A stretch of DNA of 64,000 bases from an uncultured Nitrospiraceae bacterium (GTDB lineage: Bacteria; Nitrospirota; Thermodesulfovibrionia; Thermodesulfovibrionales; SM23-35): contig CAVSHB010000001.1 in assembly GCA_963727775.1 (NCBI GenBank), positions 32,001 to 96,000 on the forward strand. Direction: 5' to 3'. Made by a program: the position numbers and the translations under genes. The notes beneath the pieces were generated by a model, which saw nothing but the letters and a program-made list of their open reading frames with translations, was not told the origin of the DNA and did no database searches. Positions 3,755 through 45,645 of the stretch are shown piece after piece. Within the stretch, counting starts at the first letter, position 1; the number at the start of each line of letters is the position of its first letter.

Positions 3755-4498
3755 CCGACAAAGCTTGTTTTGGAAGAAGTCGCTACCTTCTAACCCCAAA
3801 TAATATCGCATAGTTCTTTCGATAATCCTCAATATCTTCTTTCTGCAGAATCATTCAGTATAGATAAAAAGTCTCAAATTCTGATAAGTGCGAGGGATGC
3901 GCCTTTGATGAAAAAATCTTGAATCATCAAGTCTTTCCATTTTCAACACGTTGTAGGGTATGCCGTGTAAAACATATGACTTGTCGGTTAAAGTCCGACT
4001 GTGGGAATTTGGTAGCTCACCCACATAGCTTGAGGGAGGTGCAAAGGGTAACCTGAAGCATTAAGTTTCCTGACAAAGGCTCCGAAAGGGAGCTGAGCAA
4101 ACCCGCAGGCCGCAGCGTAAGCGAACCTATGTGTAGCCTCGTTAGTGATAAACGGAGTTGTCGACCCTCTCCTACATTGGGGAAGACCGTAGCATCTATC
4201 CTAACAGAAACTACCGTAACCGATAGATGGGCTCCCGGGGTGACAGGGGTGGCATGCAGGGGAAGCCATATGATAATAAACACGGGAGACCCGTGTCGAT
4301 GCCTTCAGAGGGTAACTGGTGGATATAAGGAAACGAAGTTTCACTGGGTCGGCATGGGAGTCGGAGTTGCCCATAGTACCGCTACTATCTCAAAGACAAC
4401 ATAACTTTGAGAGAGGGAAGGGGCAATACCTTCATCATGTTTCCGAAGGAGTAAAGGAAAGGAGATTGCGGCAACGCTATAAACTCCAGTAGTTCTGG

Positions 4499-4534
4499 GA
4501 ACTTCAGAGGAAACTATACCAGTAGACCAAGCGG
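4499..4534 (+). pseudogene. Relic of the outer intron's RT N-terminus
   Basis: Reads ELQRKLYQ*TKR after an AGGAG RBS-like site, then runs almost directly into domain V, so most of the ORF is deleted. Confidence 0.55.
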
Positions 4535-5110
4535 TAGCGAAAGCCTCTGGAAGAAGATGATTGGAAAGCCGGATTCGGGAAAACCGACCGTCCGGTTGTG
4601 TGTCCAGCGAAGGCTGGTGTGTTCAGCAGGAGACAGTCCTGCCATGGCAATAGTCAGAAGCCATGTAGTTAGGATGGCAAGGTAAAGGGAAACCGATATC
4701 CTGAAGCCCATCGACACTATCATCAAAGGGATGATAACGAGTTGCCAGGCCGCAACGAAAGTGAACGTAGAGGTGGCCCCGAGAGTTCGAAGCCCTGAAG
4801 GCCGAGTTTTCAACCGTAGGGTGAAGGCAGCATAGGTAATCGAAAACTGACTGATACGGTTATTTACTTCAGCGGGGTGATAGCGGCGGCATGGCAGCAA
4901 GGGCACACCGAGCAACTGGAGAAACCCTCATCGCCCCAGTGAGAAATCACCGGAGCAAGGTAAGTCCTATAACCAGAAACACTGGGAAGTGGGCTGAAGG
5001 CGGAAGGGTGGCGGAAGGGTCAGCAGTAGCGAAGAAGCAGGGTAATTCCTGTGGAGCGAAGAGGCCCTACTTTTGGCAATCCTCTAACAACATTGTGAGG
5101 CAGGGATGGA

Positions 5111-5746
5111 ATGACAAAGACATCTGTTAGTCTGCAAGAGCTGAGGAAGAGGATCTACGTCAAGGCGAAAGCTGATAAGCATCATCGCTTTTGGGGATTG
5201 TATGTTCACGTATGCAAGGTGGAGACGCTCCAATCGGCCTATGAGATGGCCAAACGCAATGACGGGGCACCGGGCATTGATGGTGTCACCTTCGAGGCTA
5301 TTGAGGAAAGCGGGCTGGAGGAGTTTCTCCTCGGCATACGAAATGAACTGCTTTCATGGATGTACCTGCCTATGCGAAATCGGAAGAAAGAGATACCAAA
5401 GGACAACGGAAGAGTTCGTGTTTTGGGGATACCAACAATCCGAGATAGGGTAGTGCAGGGCGCGCTTAAGCTTATTCTTGAACCAATCTTTGAAGCTGAC
5501 TTTCAAGAAGGCTCATACGGGTACCGTCCGAAGCGGACAGCGCATCAGGCGGTGCATCGGGTCGCAGATGCGGTAGTCCACAATAAAACACGGGTCATCG
5601 ACGTTGACCTCAAGGCATACTTTGATACAGTGCGTCATGACATATTGCTGAGCAAAGTAGCAAGAAGGGTCAACGATGACAGAGTGATGTGGCTGCTCAG
5701 ACTCATACTAAAAGTCAGTGGTAAGCGCGGAGTTCCACAGGGCGGA
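5111..5746 (+). pseudogene. ltrA: Group II intron RT/maturase, N-terminal part (disrupted by RIT)
   Basis: GAPGIDG, RVLGIPTIRDR, SYGYRP, DVDLKAYFD, ends at GVPQGG; the track ORF runs on into the RIT end to 5785. Confidence 0.93.
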
Positions 5747-5772
5747 TTATCCAAAGCTTTGGATAATCCGCC
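5741..5772. repeat. Perfect 32-bp palindrome at the RIT left junction
   Basis: GGCGGATTATCCAAAG|CTTTGGATAATCCGCC. Confidence 0.97.
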
Positions 5773-5857
5773 TTATCAAAAGTAATATATTATCCAAAGT
5801 AAATGCTGTAAGCGCTTGATACAGTTAGGTTTGTGTTTCATTTACTTTGGATAATAC
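5767..5857. repeat. RIT left inverted repeat (91 bp)
   Basis: Reverse complement of 9147-9237 with 3 mismatches; contains TTATCCAAAG boxes in both orientations. Confidence 0.95.
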
Positions 5858-5865
5858 TGCGTGTG

Positions 5866-6876
5866 TTAGAGACGGCTTAGCCAGGCAAGTAGCCCTTCAT
5901 CTTGGTTCCACTGCGGCAAATCAGTTACAACCATGTCGGGATATGCTTTTTCTAACGCTTTTCGTTTCAGCTCAGTATCTGTACGGGCATAAATTTCAGT
6001 TGTTGAAATATCGACATGCCCTAAAAGATCCCGGATATAAATCAGGTTAATCCCTGCCTGTAACAAATTCATCGCCTTCGTATGCCTGAAAACATGGGGG
6101 GTAACATTATCCGGAATAATCGAAGACACTGCCCTTGCACGAGACACGTATTTGTTCAGAATGAATGTAACGCCCATTGGAGTCAGCTTGCCGCGCTGGC
6201 GATTTACAAATAACGGGCGGTCCTGCATGCCGTTTTGAAGCAGATAAGTTTCGGTCATGTACTGCCGCAGCAGGGATTCCATATTGGACATAATTGGAAC
6301 CTGCCTGGTTTTGCGGCCTTTGCCAGTCAGGGTCAGGATTGGTGGATGATCCAATCGGACATCACGAACCTTTAGATCAATCAACTCCTGAACTCTGGCC
6401 CCTGTATCATACAGTGCCGAAAGCATCGTTAAGTCACGACGGCCACTGGCTTTGGAAAGATCGGGCTGGGCAAGAATGAGTTTCAATGCATCAGGTGTGA
6501 GATAATGCACCGTTGGCTTTGGAGCTTTCTTCATCGGAATTGAGAGAATTTTCTGGTATGACAATAGACCGACAGGGTCTTCGACCTGCATATACCTACA
6601 AAAGCCATGAATACAGGCCAATCGTTGGTTGCGCGTAGCGATACTGCTTTTTCTGTCTTGTTCAAGCCATGAGAGGAACCCAACCACGAGTGGCTCATCG
6701 ATGCGTTGTAGACAGATATATTCAATGGACAGGCCGCAACCCTGTTTGCAGTATATGAGAAACAGTTTGAAAGTATCCCGATAAGATTTGATCGTGTTGG
6801 GGCTGACATTGCGCTGGCCCGGCAGATAAACGGATAGGTAATGAGATAATGCCTTGGCAAAGTCAGTTGGTTTCAT
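5866..6876 (-). CDS. ritC: RIT tyrosine recombinase C
   Basis: LYDTGARVQE, GKGRKTR, HVFRHT, LLGH, TEIY catalytic motifs; ATG at 6876 with GAGGAG RBS. Confidence 0.9.
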   Translation of the reverse strand: MKPTDFAKALSHYLSVYLPGQRNVSPNTIKSYRDTFKLFLIYCKQGCGLSIEYICLQRIDEPLVVGFLSWLEQDRKSSIATRNQRLACIHGFCRYMQVEDPVGLLSYQKILSIPMKKAPKPTVHYLTPDALKLILAQPDLSKASGRRDLTMLSALYDTGARVQELIDLKVRDVRLDHPPILTLTGKGRKTRQVPIMSNMESLLRQYMTETYLLQNGMQDRPLFVNRQRGKLTPMGVTFILNKYVSRARAVSSIIPDNVTPHVFRHTKAMNLLQAGINLIYIRDLLGHVDISTTEIYARTDTELKRKALEKAYPDMVVTDLPQWNQDEGLLAWLSRL

Positions 6877-7849
6877 AGTCTTCACTCCTCATAATAGGTA
6901 TGACATGGCCAAAAGCATGGTCCACCTTTGCCGTTATATCCGGATAAAGTTCAGCGGTCAGCCTCAAGTACTGGGATGTATCGCTAAAGGAATGATGGCC
7001 CAGATACGTTTTGAGAATAGGCAGGTAGGCAGTCAAATCCTTTCCTTCCAGCACCCAGCGCCTCAGACAATGAACAGCATGGCTATGCCTCAAATCGTGG
7101 AGCCGCGGCCCTTTTCCCCATCCACCATGAGAAATCCGGGCTTTCCAAAGGAATTTCCTGAAATTTTTATAGACATTCCCTTTGGTTATCGTTTTTCCGT
7201 TCGGAGAAGGAAAGAAATAAGCGTTAGAATCAGAAAACAAATGGACCTGCTTCATATAGGCAGGACATCTATGAAGTAATTCCTTGGACATAGGAACCAG
7301 CCTGTCCTTGTTGAATTTCCCATCCATAATCGTGAGGACACCAGTGTTCAAATCTACATCCCGCACTTTGAGATTCAGCGCCTCCGAAATACGCAACCCA
7401 CAGCCATACAACATACGGAACAGCAGCGGCATGATCCAATGTCTGTTCGGAACTTCGGCACAGTAATGGCAAGCATCCACTTGTTTGAAAAACTCTGCAA
7501 GCTCATCATTGCTGAAAATGTAGGGAATGTATCTGGGTCCCTTCGGGAGGGTATTTTTGGGAAGCACATAAGCATGCACCCCGAGACGAGTCATGTACAT
7601 GGCCAGTTGCCGTACAACGCATACCCTGATCTGTAAAGTCGCCTGAGCTTCATTCGGGCGTTTCTGACGCCATGAATCGACAAGTTGTTTGGACAGTACC
7701 GGTTCTGTGCAGCCGTATGTCAGACAGAACTGATCAAAATGGTAAAGCACCCGTGCACTGCTGTCATACTTATACCCCAGCGAACGCTTTTGTAGAATCA
7801 CTTCCTGGATAAATTCCTGAAATGGACTGCTATATATGAATTCGGTCAT
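6863..7849 (-). CDS. ritB: RIT tyrosine recombinase B
   Basis: LYGCGLRISE, HDLRHSHAV, YLGH, YL; ATG overlaps the ritA stop (ATGA). Confidence 0.9.
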   Translation of the reverse strand: MTEFIYSSPFQEFIQEVILQKRSLGYKYDSSARVLYHFDQFCLTYGCTEPVLSKQLVDSWRQKRPNEAQATLQIRVCVVRQLAMYMTRLGVHAYVLPKNTLPKGPRYIPYIFSNDELAEFFKQVDACHYCAEVPNRHWIMPLLFRMLYGCGLRISEALNLKVRDVDLNTGVLTIMDGKFNKDRLVPMSKELLHRCPAYMKQVHLFSDSNAYFFPSPNGKTITKGNVYKNFRKFLWKARISHGGWGKGPRLHDLRHSHAVHCLRRWVLEGKDLTAYLPILKTYLGHHSFSDTSQYLRLTAELYPDITAKVDHAFGHVIPIMRSEDYETN

Positions 7850-9081
7850 GACTCGAACACCCCCTCGGGGTTCAGCGCGCATTCACGTAGCATCTCCACG
7901 TCCACCTTAAGATAGACAGCCGTTGAATCCGAACTGACGTGTCCCAATATATCGGAAATAACGGATAAGGGTGTTTTCTCTTGAAGTAATCTGCTTGCCA
8001 GCGTGTGCCGTAAGGAATGCATGCCTCTCTTTTTCTGAGGAGAAATCGGGATTTTGGCCAGTCTCATATATTTGACCAAGATTTGATGCAGTCTGTCTTC
8101 ATCCGAGAATGGTTCCAGTGGCGCAAGGTGCCGCAAAAAAACGTAGGGGCTTTCCACCTTGGGACGCCCATTTTTCAGATAATCAATGATCGCCCAGCCG
8201 ATATCGGGAAGAAGTGGGAGGCTCAGCACTCCGGACGTTTTGGACTGTATCAATTCGATGCGATTATCCGGCCATTTCAGGTTGTCCAATTTCAAACGCT
8301 TGATATCTATCGTACGGAGGCCCAACCGCGCGACCAGAAGGATCATTGCATAATCCCTTCTTCCGGCAGGATTGCCTCTGTCTATGACATCGAGCAACTT
8401 GGCGACATGCTCCGGAGTCCATACCGAAGGAATTCTGTTTTGCTTTCTGGCCTTAATCGCAGGGATGGTTTCTGCCAGGTCCTGTGGATGAAGATCGTTA
8501 GTGTGAAGATAGCGCAAAAACGAGCGCAACGCACAAAGATGCAATTCTACAGTCTTATAGCTGTACCCCAACAACGTGTTGATATAGCCGGATACATGTT
8601 TAGCGGTAATATCTGAATAAGAGACAATCTTTTGTGATTCCAAAAAACTCAGAAACTGTTCGGAAATTTTACCATAGTGATTTTGTGTCACTTTGGAGTA
8701 TTCCTTCTGCTGGCAATGGGTTACATAGTACTGCAGTACCTCCTTGAATTCGTCGTTATACAGCAGCTCTTTCTGTTTGTAGTACCTGCGCAGAATGCTG
8801 CCATGTTGCTGGAAGTCACCAAGCATCCGGACAACTCGAAAGGCGTTAATGATCGATTGCGTTAGATCTCCCGCTTCCTCTAATTCGAAAAAGTTATACT
8901 GCTTGTCCAGAAAACGCATACCCACTTCTTCTGCAAAGTGGTCGACTCCTTCGTTTTCGAAAAACGCGACAATACGTTTCCACATCATGCGATAGTACTT
9001 TACCGTATCTTTTTTGTAATGGAGACGGTACAGTTCTTTTTCCAGTCGTGTGATTAAATCTTGCAAAGGCGGGCTGTTCAT
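7846..9081 (-). CDS. ritA: RIT tyrosine recombinase A
   Basis: RDYAMILLVARLGLR, HSLRHT, ILGH, VYL; 411 aa. Confidence 0.9.
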   Translation of the reverse strand: MNSPPLQDLITRLEKELYRLHYKKDTVKYYRMMWKRIVAFFENEGVDHFAEEVGMRFLDKQYNFFELEEAGDLTQSIINAFRVVRMLGDFQQHGSILRRYYKQKELLYNDEFKEVLQYYVTHCQQKEYSKVTQNHYGKISEQFLSFLESQKIVSYSDITAKHVSGYINTLLGYSYKTVELHLCALRSFLRYLHTNDLHPQDLAETIPAIKARKQNRIPSVWTPEHVAKLLDVIDRGNPAGRRDYAMILLVARLGLRTIDIKRLKLDNLKWPDNRIELIQSKTSGVLSLPLLPDIGWAIIDYLKNGRPKVESPYVFLRHLAPLEPFSDEDRLHQILVKYMRLAKIPISPQKKRGMHSLRHTLASRLLQEKTPLSVISDILGHVSSDSTAVYLKVDVEMLRECALNPEGVFES

Positions 9082-9146
9082 CGGTATTCCTCCAAAATAT
9101 TTAGTGAGATCGGTTCTTCAATCTCCCATAAATACCTTGGTCTGCC

Positions 9147-9237
9147 GTATTATCCAAAGTAAATGAACCCCAAACCTAACTGTATCAAGCGCTTACAGCA
9201 TTTACTTTGGATAATATTTTACTTTTGATAAGGCGGA
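9147..9237. repeat. RIT right inverted repeat (91 bp)
   Basis: Inverted copy of 5767-5857, ending in GGCGGA. Confidence 0.95.
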
Positions 9238-9906
9238 GTAATCTCGCCCCTACTGTCGAATATCTATCTTAACGAGGTGGATAAGATGCTGGAGAAGGCG
9301 AAAATCGTAACGAGCAAATCTGGTTTTACCCATGTCGAATATGCTCGTTTTGCGGATGACCTTGTGGTACTCGTAGATGGGTATCGCCGCTGGGACTGGC
9401 TGGTAGAGAGGGTATATCGGCGACTTCTTGAGGAGTTCGCAAGAGTTGATGTAACAGTCAACGAAGAAAAGACACGACTGGTAGACCTGATGAAAGGAGA
9501 GAGCTTCAGCTTTCTGGGATTCGACATTCGGAGTGTCCGAACACTGAGTGACAAATCAGGAGTGCTTATTACGCCAAGGATGAAAGCGCGGACGACCCTT
9601 TTGCATAACCTCAAGGAAATCTTCCAGCGCTTCATATCGCAACCAGTGGGCCGGGTGATAGAACTGATCAACCCGAAACTCCGGGGCTGGGTTAACTACT
9701 TTAGGGTGGGACATTCCAGCAGGTGTTTTCAGTACGTAAAAGATTGGGTGGAGAAGAAGATACGGCGGCATCTTATGAGGGCTCGAAAACGGGGAGGCTT
9801 TGGCTGGGACAGGTGGAGTAGAGACTGGTTTTACGGGCATCTTGGGCTTTATGCCGATTATAAGGTGAGGTATTACCGTGGACTCGAAAGCGCTGCCAGC
9901 GGATAG
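9238..9906 (+). pseudogene. ltrA: Group II intron RT/maturase, C-terminal part
   Basis: VISPLLSNIYL, YARFADD catalytic motif, FSFLGF, thumb/X domain INPKLRGWVNYF; no endonuclease domain seen; the joined ORF is 434 aa. Confidence 0.93.
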
Positions 9907-10157
9907 GCATCATAACCCTTGAGGAGAAGCCAATAGGAAAGCGTAGTGCGGGAAATCCGCACGCTGCGTTTGACGTGGCAGGGAATGGAGAAGTGCCATG
10001 GCGAACCTAAACGGGCACGAAACTGGAAACGGTGGATACAGCCAAGGGGAGACCTACGGTAACTCGCCATTCTTTGACCCTACTGACGAGGGTGATGTAG
10101 GATGGAAAAAGTGGACACCAAAGTCAGATAAAATAAATGAAAGACGGAGGTGTCAGA

Positions 10158-10472
10158 ATGAAAGGGATTCCGCAGGGACGTTACACGAAGGAGTTTCGTG
10201 GGGAGGCAGTGAAGATGGTGTTAGCCGGGGGTATATCGTTGCTGGAGGCAGCTCACCGGCTGTCATTGCCGCCCTCGACGTTAGGGAACTGGGTCAAGGC
10301 GCATAAAGCTGGCAAGCTGGAAGATATAGGCAAGACACAGAAGCCACTGACGGAGCTAGAGATGGAACTGGCAAGGGTAAAGAAAGAGCTGGTAGAGACG
10401 AGAATGGAGCGTGATCTGCTAAAAAAAGCTGCCGCGTACTTTGCGAAGGAGTCGCTGCCCGGTACGCGCTAA
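10158..10472 (+). CDS. IS3 transposase OrfA (HTH)
   Basis: RYTKEFR..AV..V HTH, MERDLLKKAAAYFAKE end; GGAGG RBS. Confidence 0.92.
   Translation: MKGIPQGRYTKEFRGEAVKMVLAGGISLLEAAHRLSLPPSTLGNWVKAHKAGKLEDIGKTQKPLTELEMELARVKKELVETRMERDLLKKAAAYFAKESLPGTR
10421..10428 (+). other. Probable -1 programmed frameshift site (A7G) fusing OrfA and OrfB
   Basis: AAAAAAAG near the orfA 3' end, typical of IS3. Confidence 0.7.
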
Positions 10473-11332
10473 TGAAAGAAATGCGACTTCAATATTCAGT
10501 GCCGCTGATGTGCCGGATATATAACGTATCGGCAAGCGGATACTATGCACACGTGACAAGGCCGCTTTCTAAGCGGGGGCAGGAAGACGCCCGCTTGGAG
10601 GTTGAGATTAAGGCTGCACATAAGAGGACACGGCGGGTATGCGGCGCTGAGAGATTACAGAAGGATTTGGCAGACAACGGTATTGCAGTGGGTGTTTGCC
10701 GGATCAAGCGACTCAGGAAGAAGCTCGGTATACGCTGTAAGCAGACGAAGAAATTCAAAACTACAACTGACTCAAAACATACGCTTCCGGTGGCTGAGAA
10801 CCTACTGGACCAGCAGTTTGAAGTATCCAGGCCGAACATGGCATGGTTGAGCGATATAACATATGTTTGGACCGATGAAGGATGGCTGTACCTTGCCGCG
10901 CACAAGGATCTTTTTAACGGTGAGATAGTCGGATACGCAATGGGAGAACGGATAACGAAGAGCCTTGTAAGTCAGTCTTTATTCCGTGCCGTTGCAGCGA
11001 AGCGTCCAGGGAAGGGGCTGATTCATCACTCGGATCGCGGGAGCCAATATTGTGCTCATGATTATCGGAAGCTTCTTAATCAGTTCGGCATGACGGCATC
11101 AATGAGTAGAAAAGGGAATTGCTATGACAATGCCCCGATGGAGAGTTTCTGGGGCACGCTGAAGCAGGAGCTTGTCCATCACAGACGCTACAGGAACAGA
11201 CAAGAGGCAGTGCAGGATATCACGGAATATATCGAGATCTTCTACAACAGGCAGCGCCGACAGGCAAGACTTGGATATCTATCCCCAGTTGCTTATGAGT
11301 ATCAATTCTATGCACGAGAGCTGGCAGCATGA
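10472..11332 (+). CDS. IS3 transposase OrfB (DDE)
   Basis: WLSDITY, HHSDRGSQY, GNCYDNAPMESFWGTLKQE. Confidence 0.95.
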   Translation: MKEMRLQYSVPLMCRIYNVSASGYYAHVTRPLSKRGQEDARLEVEIKAAHKRTRRVCGAERLQKDLADNGIAVGVCRIKRLRKKLGIRCKQTKKFKTTTDSKHTLPVAENLLDQQFEVSRPNMAWLSDITYVWTDEGWLYLAAHKDLFNGEIVGYAMGERITKSLVSQSLFRAVAAKRPGKGLIHHSDRGSQYCAHDYRKLLNQFGMTASMSRKGNCYDNAPMESFWGTLKQELVHHRRYRNRQEAVQDITEYIEIFYNRQRRQARLGYLSPVAYEYQFYARELAA

Positions 11333-11720
11333 AAGGTTTGGTGTCCACTATTGACATCCGAGGTCAGGGGGAACTGGAGATAGAACCTTATGGCGACTAC
11401 GCCAGTTCTCTACTCTACTGTCTTCAACAAAACTTCCATCTTTGTTAGCACAAACGGTCTGTACCCAAAACTATAGACCGCAAATGCGGTAGATAGTTAA
11501 CCTTGTCGCTCAGGTGTCCTCCAAAGTATATCATCATAATATCTTTTAATTTTTAATATCCTCTTGTATTTTTTTTCATCGGAGATAACAGGGCAGCAAG
11601 TTGTATTCCAAGAAGAAATCCAAACTGTATCACTACCCCATATTTTCGTGCCTTGACAAATATCATAATCTTTCATTACGCTTGTTGCAGATAAAAAAAA
11701 TGTAAGGCGGTGGAGTCATT

Positions 11721-45487: not shown

Positions 45488-45565
45488 TGGCGTCCCCAAC
45501 GGGATTTGAACCCGTGTTACCGCCTTGAAAGGGCGATGTCCTAGGCCGGGCTAGACGATAGGGAC
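45488..45565 (-). tRNA. tRNA-Glu(TTC)
   Basis: Reverse complement GTCCCTATCG...CTTTCAA...GGTTCAAATCC...GGGGACGCCA cloverleaf with encoded CCA. Confidence 0.96.
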
Positions 45566-45569
45566 GCAT

Positions 45570-45645
45570 TGGTGAGCCGCGTTGGATTCGAACCAACGAC
45601 CCACGCCTTAAAAGGGCGTTGCTCTACCAACTGAGCTAGCGGCCC
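45570..45645 (-). tRNA. tRNA-Lys(TTT)
   Basis: Reverse complement GGGCCGCTAGCTCAGTTGGTAGAGC...CTTTTAA...GGTTCGAATCC...CACCA. Confidence 0.96.

Follow-up and report, generated by a model that had tools for sequence, protein, structure and literature searches.

Target recognition by group II introns relies on pairing between exon-binding and intron-binding sites (EBS-IBS), and reverse splicing independent of an endonuclease (En) has been described (PMC4424553, PMC5894124, PMC8643678). In the nested introns of Methanosarcina acetivorans, as in the RYADD-targeting introns M.a.I5, UA.I3 and P.l.I2, endonuclease-less elements insert site-specifically into a conserved intron motif and build nested arrays, like the element described here; their target, however, is the coding sequence of the reverse transcriptase (RT), while here it is the catalytic hairpin, domain V (DV), and recoding of the element's own copy of the target is absent from the consulted sections of these descriptions (PMC4424553, PMC2504315). 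In the TeI3/TeI4 twintrons of Thermosynechococcus elongatus, as described in the sections consulted, ORF-less derivatives enter RT-bearing relatives and are mobilized in trans, EBS divergence opening new targets; three RT-deleted introns reported below match this pattern, but the TeI3/TeI4 insertion point is in domain IV, flanked by two start codons, leaving the host ribozyme core intact, while here the host DV is split (PMC2882425).

The introns of ORF group g2, formerly part of class F (named members Mx.xa.I1, W.e.I5, Ma.sp.I2, Sg.ce.I1 and B.th.I3), share with the present one the FADD motif, an RT-X protein without En, an ORF of about 430–445 aa and an intron length of about 2 kb; the consulted part of their description includes neither DV targeting nor a variant DV stem, and lists several loci only as putative non-coding sequence (PMC3552965). 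In its outcome, an element avoiding insertion into itself recalls the target immunity of phage Mu transposition, which, in the source sections consulted, is regional and mediated by a protein (MuB), while here it would be passive, residing in no more than two to four base pairs of RNA, and kin could escape it (PMC3894238, PMC2837660). No Mu-type immunity protein is found among the ORFs of the element: the likeness is one of outcome only. In the literature searched, which stopped short of the original class F and nested-intron papers, no description was found of a recoded own DV, of invasion by kin or of DV-homing bacterial introns. Class F was reportedly defined by Simon et al. in 2008.

The locus lies in a stretch of 64,000 nucleotides, called here the window; its features are reported in Table 1. 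A host (outer) group II intron, whose own ORF is reduced to a stub, spans approximately positions 3951–11418. The 5' boundary is placed at 3951, where similarity to an RT-bearing relative (C1:477072) starts, and loci L001 and L006 share sequence from about the same point; the apparent first bases are TTGTA, not GTGYG. The inner intron (4598–10083) starts with GTGTG directly after the host ...TCCGGTT, at the base of the host DV, of which only the last nucleotide lies beyond the insertion point, and ends in ..CCCTAC. The 3' exon that follows, TGACGAGGG, restores the linker between host DV and host domain VI (DVI): the nesting is precise, the host DV reaching 4597 and resuming at 10084, as in a twintron. 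The inner element has the features of a group II intron: a DV hairpin with an AGC/CGC triad, followed by a DVI and an AY end, the GTGTG start, an EBS1 complementary to the 5' exon and an RT/maturase ORF in domain IV. Both TIGR04416 pieces of this ORF score below the whole-protein cut-off, an element with three recombinase ORFs, which we take to be a RIT element, lying between them; the homologous ORF is intact in L002. Two more copies of the inner 3' end are present in the genome, each followed by a host-type DVI and neither by its own.

In this genome the RIT-type element has entered the RT genes of several different introns at one and the same conserved motif (in the window and at C1:478298-481774, C1:318650 and C4:1-119); at C1:318650 a fusion joins the 3' half of the inner intron and the 5' half of a different one. 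The DV of an RT-bearing relative of the host (C1:482420-482460) ends in ACGGAA, is unpaired opposite the triad, and is without an inner intron. Elsewhere in the window, Rfam reports two tRNA genes on the minus strand (45491–45645).

Table 1. Features of the nested locus in the window, and loci of the unrelated lineage B
Feature	Position	Strand	Evidence or remarks
Host intron, 5' part: domains I–IV and ORF stub, then DV up to the insertion point	3951..4597	+	Rfam RF02003 at 3981-4120
Host domain V, canonical lower stem	4566..4597	+	hairpin fold -16.8 kcal/mol, z -2.7
Host IBS1 TCCGGTT; host IBS2	4591-4597; 4585-4589	+	positions by covariation
Inner intron 5' RNA, domains I–IVa, GTGTG start	4598..5110	+	RF02003 at 4624-4760; homologous 5' ends in 56 aligned sequences
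Inner EBS2 GTTCG, pairs with exon -9..-13	4785..4789	+	covariation, strong at -9..-12, weak at -13
Inner EBS1 AACCGTA, pairs with exon -1..-7	4812..4818	+	covariation in 78 relatives, 76–95% Watson-Crick per position
Inner RT/maturase ORF, N-terminal piece, runs into the RIT-type element	5111..5785	+	TIGR04416 positions 2-185, E 5e-60
Element presumed to be of RIT type, three XerC/D-like tyrosine recombinase ORFs, interrupts the inner ORF	5764..9240	-	also present at C1:478298-481774 (99.9% identity)
Inner RT/maturase ORF, C-terminal piece with the FADD motif, stops behind the maturase region	9277..9906	+	TIGR04416 positions 201-352
Inner domain V, recoded lower stem AGCGTAG/CTGCGTT; IBS1-equivalent position 9964-9970	9938..9971	+	fold, Rfam, covariation
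Inner domain VI and 3' end (..CCCTAC)	9972..10083	+	RF00029 match ends at 10083; fold
3' exon: last base of host DV and DV/DVI linker	10084..10092	+	same sequence after the intron in L001, L002, L003, L006
IS3-family insertion sequence in the host DV/DVI linker	10093..11366	+	NF033516; 7 further genome copies; ends read
Host domain VI and 3' end	11367..11418	+	100% identical to host DVI of L001
Lineage B loci, rhizobial plasmids	L211:657-2575, L212, L216, L289-L310		TTGCG start; up to 10 copies or remnants per plasmid

The inner DV folds with -16.7 kcal/mol (z -3.2), 2 of 200 shuffled sequences doing as well, and lies in a match to Rfam RF00029 (9937–10083) of 32.5 bits, under the gathering score of 40. 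The triad is AGC (9940–9942); fold and Rfam match agree with the stem, AGCGTAG in the 5' arm and CTGCGTT in the 3' arm, that an earlier note on this DNA had read from the letters. Exon-binding sites were mapped in 78 units with enough exon, where each exon position from -1 to -7 covaries best with window columns 4812 to 4818. EBS1, which the note had given as the hexamer AACCGT, is therefore seven nucleotides long, exon position -7 covarying with 4818; its statement that the own DV pairs only at the last three nucleotides holds, AACCGTA forming 6 of 7 pairs with the host site and 3 of 7, the last three bases, with the own DV. The RNA duplex energy of the EBS1 hexamer is -5.2 kcal/mol with the host site and -1.5 kcal/mol with the own DV. 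EBS2, compared by eye, forms four of five pairs with either DV, so that discrimination rests on EBS1, whose sequence resembles the 5' arm of a canonical DV. At the level of sequence, the specificity for a DV target is demonstrated by this covariation.

Relatives were taken from 11 genome loci (found with half of the protein as query), 10 loci from a phylum search and the best 80 of 556 metagenome matches, with the addition of one close viral locus and 7 plasmid loci. Removal of 10 duplicates, of 5 outgroup loci and of a single unit of outgroup type left 88 intron units, among them the near-identical L002/L003, L056/L201, L077/L081 and L001/L006/window. Of these sampled units, 48 are classed as inserted in a DV and 40 elsewhere, a partly manual classing: 10 degenerate or truncated host DVs were set by eye, 3 units were assigned by EBS1 or 3' exon alone, and L004 and L068, with a DV-type EBS1 at a non-DV site, are counted among the others. 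The hosts of the DV-homers are diverse introns, mostly with (A/C/T)CGG(T/A)T sites. Genome searches were positive in 1 out of 201 (the seed genome itself) and in 7 out of 401, all at about 40% identity, and one further search gave no loci; a pattern scan of viral contigs for junctions between variant DVs and introns returned three stretches, none of them an intron.

The RTs of the clade are monophyletic (SH-aLRT 100). In the sister group the stem is canonical in 8 rows out of 8, and the sites, where read, are not DVs; the next group out, B.th.I3-like, has a different DV variant and also non-DV sites. The FADD of g2 is found in place of YADD in RT5, both in the window (ARFADD, 9277–9906) and in the alignment; as in g2, no D/En domain is present, the ORF being of 433 aa and its homologues carrying PF00078 and PF08388 only. 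The clade groups with the RT of a Bacillus plasmid, L206 (51% identity; FastTree support 0.998), the B.th.I3 type being the one compared among the five named g2 members; RTs of clade and B.th.I3 type are 50% identical. The match H57 falls within the coordinates given for B.th.I3 in Table S2 of the g2 description, provided that NC_009841 is, as it would seem, the same plasmid as DQ363750 (PMC3552965).

DV-homing occurs in most branches of the clade, which suggests an ancestral habit; two-state parsimony is ambiguous at the clade root, and the base of the clade is open in the tree. Five Bradyrhizobium copies with identical 5' RNA, all in foreign DVs, point to recent mobility of a relative. L037, L069 and L320 have EBS1 AACTGT and are inserted in (A/G)CAGTT-type DVs of other introns, B.th.I3-like ones included: judging from these EBS1 sequences, the targeting of clade members tracks foreign DV variants too. 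In a retargeted subclade (L063, L064, L080, L083, L086, L088, L091, L099) EBS1 is ACTT-like and the catalytic triad is switched from AGC to CGC; the same switch is present in a second subclade, around L201, which is yet still DV-homing. A second intron-internal target is provided by L029:84-1438, an RT-deleted clade member (EBS1 CTGTCA) within domain I of a close relative.

At 80 natural junctions, mismatches between EBS1 and exon positions -1 to -7 number 0, 7, 2, 0, 1, 14 and 6, never exceeding two in total. A target was accordingly called acceptable with no mismatch at -1, -3, -4 and -5 and at most two overall, a rule satisfied by 77 of the 80 real sites. The own DV of the inner intron has four mismatches, at -4 to -7: it is mismatched at a position where none of the 80 natural targets is, and, with four mismatches including -4 and -5, it falls outside the range of sites used by the clade. 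The EBS1 of the inner intron would accept 47 out of 72 non-clade intron DVs but 3 out of 83 clade DVs, which is more than a chance difference. Among DV-homers the own DV is acceptable in 2 out of 46, while about 27 would be expected if own DVs were drawn from the 72 non-clade ones; in all 43 DV-homers with both sites known, it pairs worse than the host. The stem has changed with its pairing preserved (329 of 332 lower-stem pairs across the clade), which bears out the compensatory changes claimed in the earlier note. The GCG-type stem is found in none of 69 non-clade intron clusters, counted once lineage-B loci, a single fragment from the clade and DV calls that were false or displaced (10 loci) had been removed. 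Changes at -4/-5 and at -6/-7, counted by parsimony, which undercounts on long baseline branches, are 28 vs 20 over 79 clade tips and 11 vs 38 over 75 non-clade introns (Fisher P 4e-4); elsewhere the pairs at -4/-5 are nearly fixed, with 5 changes among 54 AGC-type baseline introns. The mismatch spectrum argues for a block of the ancestral EBS1 on the own DV, which very probably goes unused as a target.

That this is the purpose of the variant stem, as the earlier note proposed, is another matter: the DV is, by the spectrum of the 80 sites, very probably unusable, but within the clade it does not covary with the target. Own DVs of canonical type are as scarce among DV-homers (2 out of 46) as among members at other sites (1 out of 38). 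The covariation of EBS1 and DV that the note would have looked for across the clade is absent: when own DVs are permuted among clade members, 2.2 self-acceptable cases are expected and 2 are seen (P 0.62), and nine independent pairs on supported branches reveal no covariation of DV state with target choice. Tuning of each DV against the EBS1 of its own intron thus finds no support. The note had held that its reading would fail if the GCGTT variant were equally common at unrelated targets. Outside the clade the answer is in its favor; within the clade it goes against the note, for stems are non-canonical in 37 of 38 members at other targets and in 44 of 46 DV-homers, and the GCG type proper is found in 29 of 46 DV-homers and 11 of 38 others, a difference (raw Fisher P 0.002) to which a single retargeted subclade with 8 members contributes unduly. 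If the stem was inherited from an ancestor that homed to DV, the lack of covariation is explained without contradiction. It speaks against the reading, too, that the joint origin of DV homing and recoding amounts to one evolutionary event, or two with lineage B.

Other observations bear on the same point. L033 and L036, which branch next to the subclade that includes the inner intron (SH-aLRT 96), are DV-homers with a canonical, self-acceptable DV, and are without self-nesting. The stem is not of CG type in 16 of the 69 baseline clusters, including the B.th.I3-like group, introns with no known DV targeting. In the genome of origin an acceptable canonical DV (C4:120377) is as empty as the own DVs, which therefore say little and were discarded as evidence. 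No identical self-nested copy is present in any locus scanned, although copies of this kind could escape notice by collapsing through recombination. Self-nested copies were the other finding that the note had named against itself: no identical one is seen, yet recoded DVs are entered by relatives, and the two DV-homers just mentioned match themselves.

Three RT-deleted clade members (L035:3727-4610, L024:1753-2755, L070:3199-4130) lie inside the recoded DV of RT-bearing clade members; across the aligned 5' RNA, invader and host are 82–86% identical. The occupied DV of L035 shares its lower stem with the inner DV at 9938–9971; the invader's EBS1, AACGCAG, matches it at 7 positions out of 7, while the invader's own site reads TTGGGTT. 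The EBS1 of the L070 invader also matches the occupied DV at 7 positions out of 7, that of L024 at 6. In all three, EBS1 and the own DV are mismatched at -4 or -1, where the 80 natural sites show no mismatch, and the stem targeted is in each case the one that prevails among the invader's closest relatives. Since relatives at 80–92% identity differ in the DV site 40–61% of the time, three differing invaders out of three are suggestive only, not significant. Clade-wide immunity is rejected by these loci: protection would work against self, not against kin. At L051:2085-2330, two similar clade-type DVIs stand in tandem ahead of the host DVI, probably a collapsed nesting of two relatives. With this probable fourth case, nesting cases number 4 among the best 80 of 556 metagenome loci.

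A search of plasmids for variant DVs met a second, unrelated lineage (lineage B, Table 1), from Rhizobium and Sinorhizobium, with an RT about 35% identical and stems AGCGTAG/CTACGTT or AGCGTGG/CCACGTT. At each of the four distinct host junctions that were read, its members are inserted 9–10 nt downstream of another intron's DV. EBS2, assigned by eye, would pair with a canonical CGGTT, but at only 3 of 5 positions with the own stem. The 3' flank, read for 20 of 22 copies, is in no case the intron's own DVI. Of the relatives of lineage B at 39–41% identity, 6 out of 7 are canonical at pairs 4–5, and neither of the two whose 5' junction could be read is inserted at a DV. The DV of lineage B may possibly have been captured by recombination between nested introns. 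A scan of viral contigs found no lineage-B intron. One host (L066:3185-3200) carries both types, a clade intron at the DV end and a lineage-B intron 10 nt further on.

The explanation that we consider best, with about an even chance of being right, is self-exclusion at the level of the lineage, eroded by kin, with selection against self-insertion behind the recoding. The clade consists of endonuclease-less, FADD-type (g2-like) introns that as a rule home to the 3' strand of DV in other group II introns. EBS1 mimics the 5' arm of a canonical DV and pairs with the 3' arm, reverse splicing presumably taking place just before the last DV base pair, as retrohoming chemistry would have it. Along the branch leading to the clade, the lower stem of DV was rewritten with pairing kept, and the ancestral EBS1 should no longer be able to read the clade's own DV. 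Copies would then land in foreign introns and not disable each other. Self-insertion would be costly, since a host with a split DV could presumably splice only once the invader had spliced out, and selection against it is a likely but unproven cause of the stem change. As the recoding is inherited, not tuned for each intron, members that moved to other targets keep the recoded stem. RT-deleted kin re-tune EBS1 to the recoded DV and carry yet another stem, which may keep the two base pairs turning over. A wider form of this reading is a self/non-self code with an arms race in DV, the ribozyme's most conserved helix: DV reading would force recoding (twice independently, with nearly the same stem), kin would re-tune and have to recode again, and two base pairs beside the catalytic triad, normally fixed, would evolve under diversifying selection. 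We give it a modest chance.

The lineage trait may instead be neutral, the product of ancestral compensatory drift or of a relaxed tertiary constraint, with self non-recognition as a by-product and kin tracking whatever DVs are available. This, too, has a modest chance in our view. The missing covariation within the clade and the self-matching L033 and L036 agree with it, as does the fact that 16 of 69 unrelated clusters, most of them class C-like, have a non-canonical stem, and the B.th.I3-like group likewise; the faster turnover fits a relaxed constraint as well as selection. Against it, the released positions are exactly those read by EBS1, near-fixed in the AGC-type baseline, and lineage B, with its insertions shortly downstream of DV, has come to a nearly identical stem. 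A candidate motif of domain I, which we take to be the kappa region, is moreover the same in clade members with canonical and with variant DV, and different in the canonical sister group. It is unlikely, in our view, that the stem was recoded to escape co-resident DV-homing introns in general, self-avoidance being one case of this. Retargeted members that keep the stem and go on changing it would fit such an escape, as would the invasion of recoded DVs in L024, L035, L070 and probably L051 (tandem DVI) and the EBS1 of L037, L069 and L320, re-tuned to (A/G)CAGTT DVs of other introns; but the nesting cases are only the 4 among the best 80 of 556 metagenome loci, and unrelated introns, which face the same invaders, have for the most part kept the canonical stem (53 of 69 clusters).

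Recoding might also protect the precursor RNA rather than the DNA. A canonical own DV could pair with EBS1 through its 3' arm and with the host IBS1 through its 5' arm, which would misfold the active site or create a cryptic 5' splice site. EBS1 does look like a canonical DV 5' arm, the sequence pattern predicted is the same as for self-exclusion, and alternative IBS-like sites are reported, in the section consulted, to cause mis-splicing in the class F intron Ge.ur.I1 (PMC3753933). We hold this account to be quite improbable, since L033 and L036 keep intact ORFs despite a self-matching DV, and lineage B would read DV by EBS2 only (assigned by eye), a site described as dispensable for splicing in the IIE/IIF introns tested (PMC3753933, section consulted); a reason at the DNA level is favored there.

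Returning to self-exclusion, its neutral counterpart would still leave a well-defined clade of DV-homing introns, with intron-on-intron hyperparasites. The clade offers natural variants for asking which DV pairs are needed in catalysis, and swaps of EBS1 against DV make a simple test system. As the variant DV scores below the Rfam cut-off, surveys based on DV may undercount both the clade and its hosts. If selection is confirmed, it would explain why one clade breaks the conservation of DV, and the recoded stem would represent a minimal self/non-self system, contained in a few RNA base pairs.
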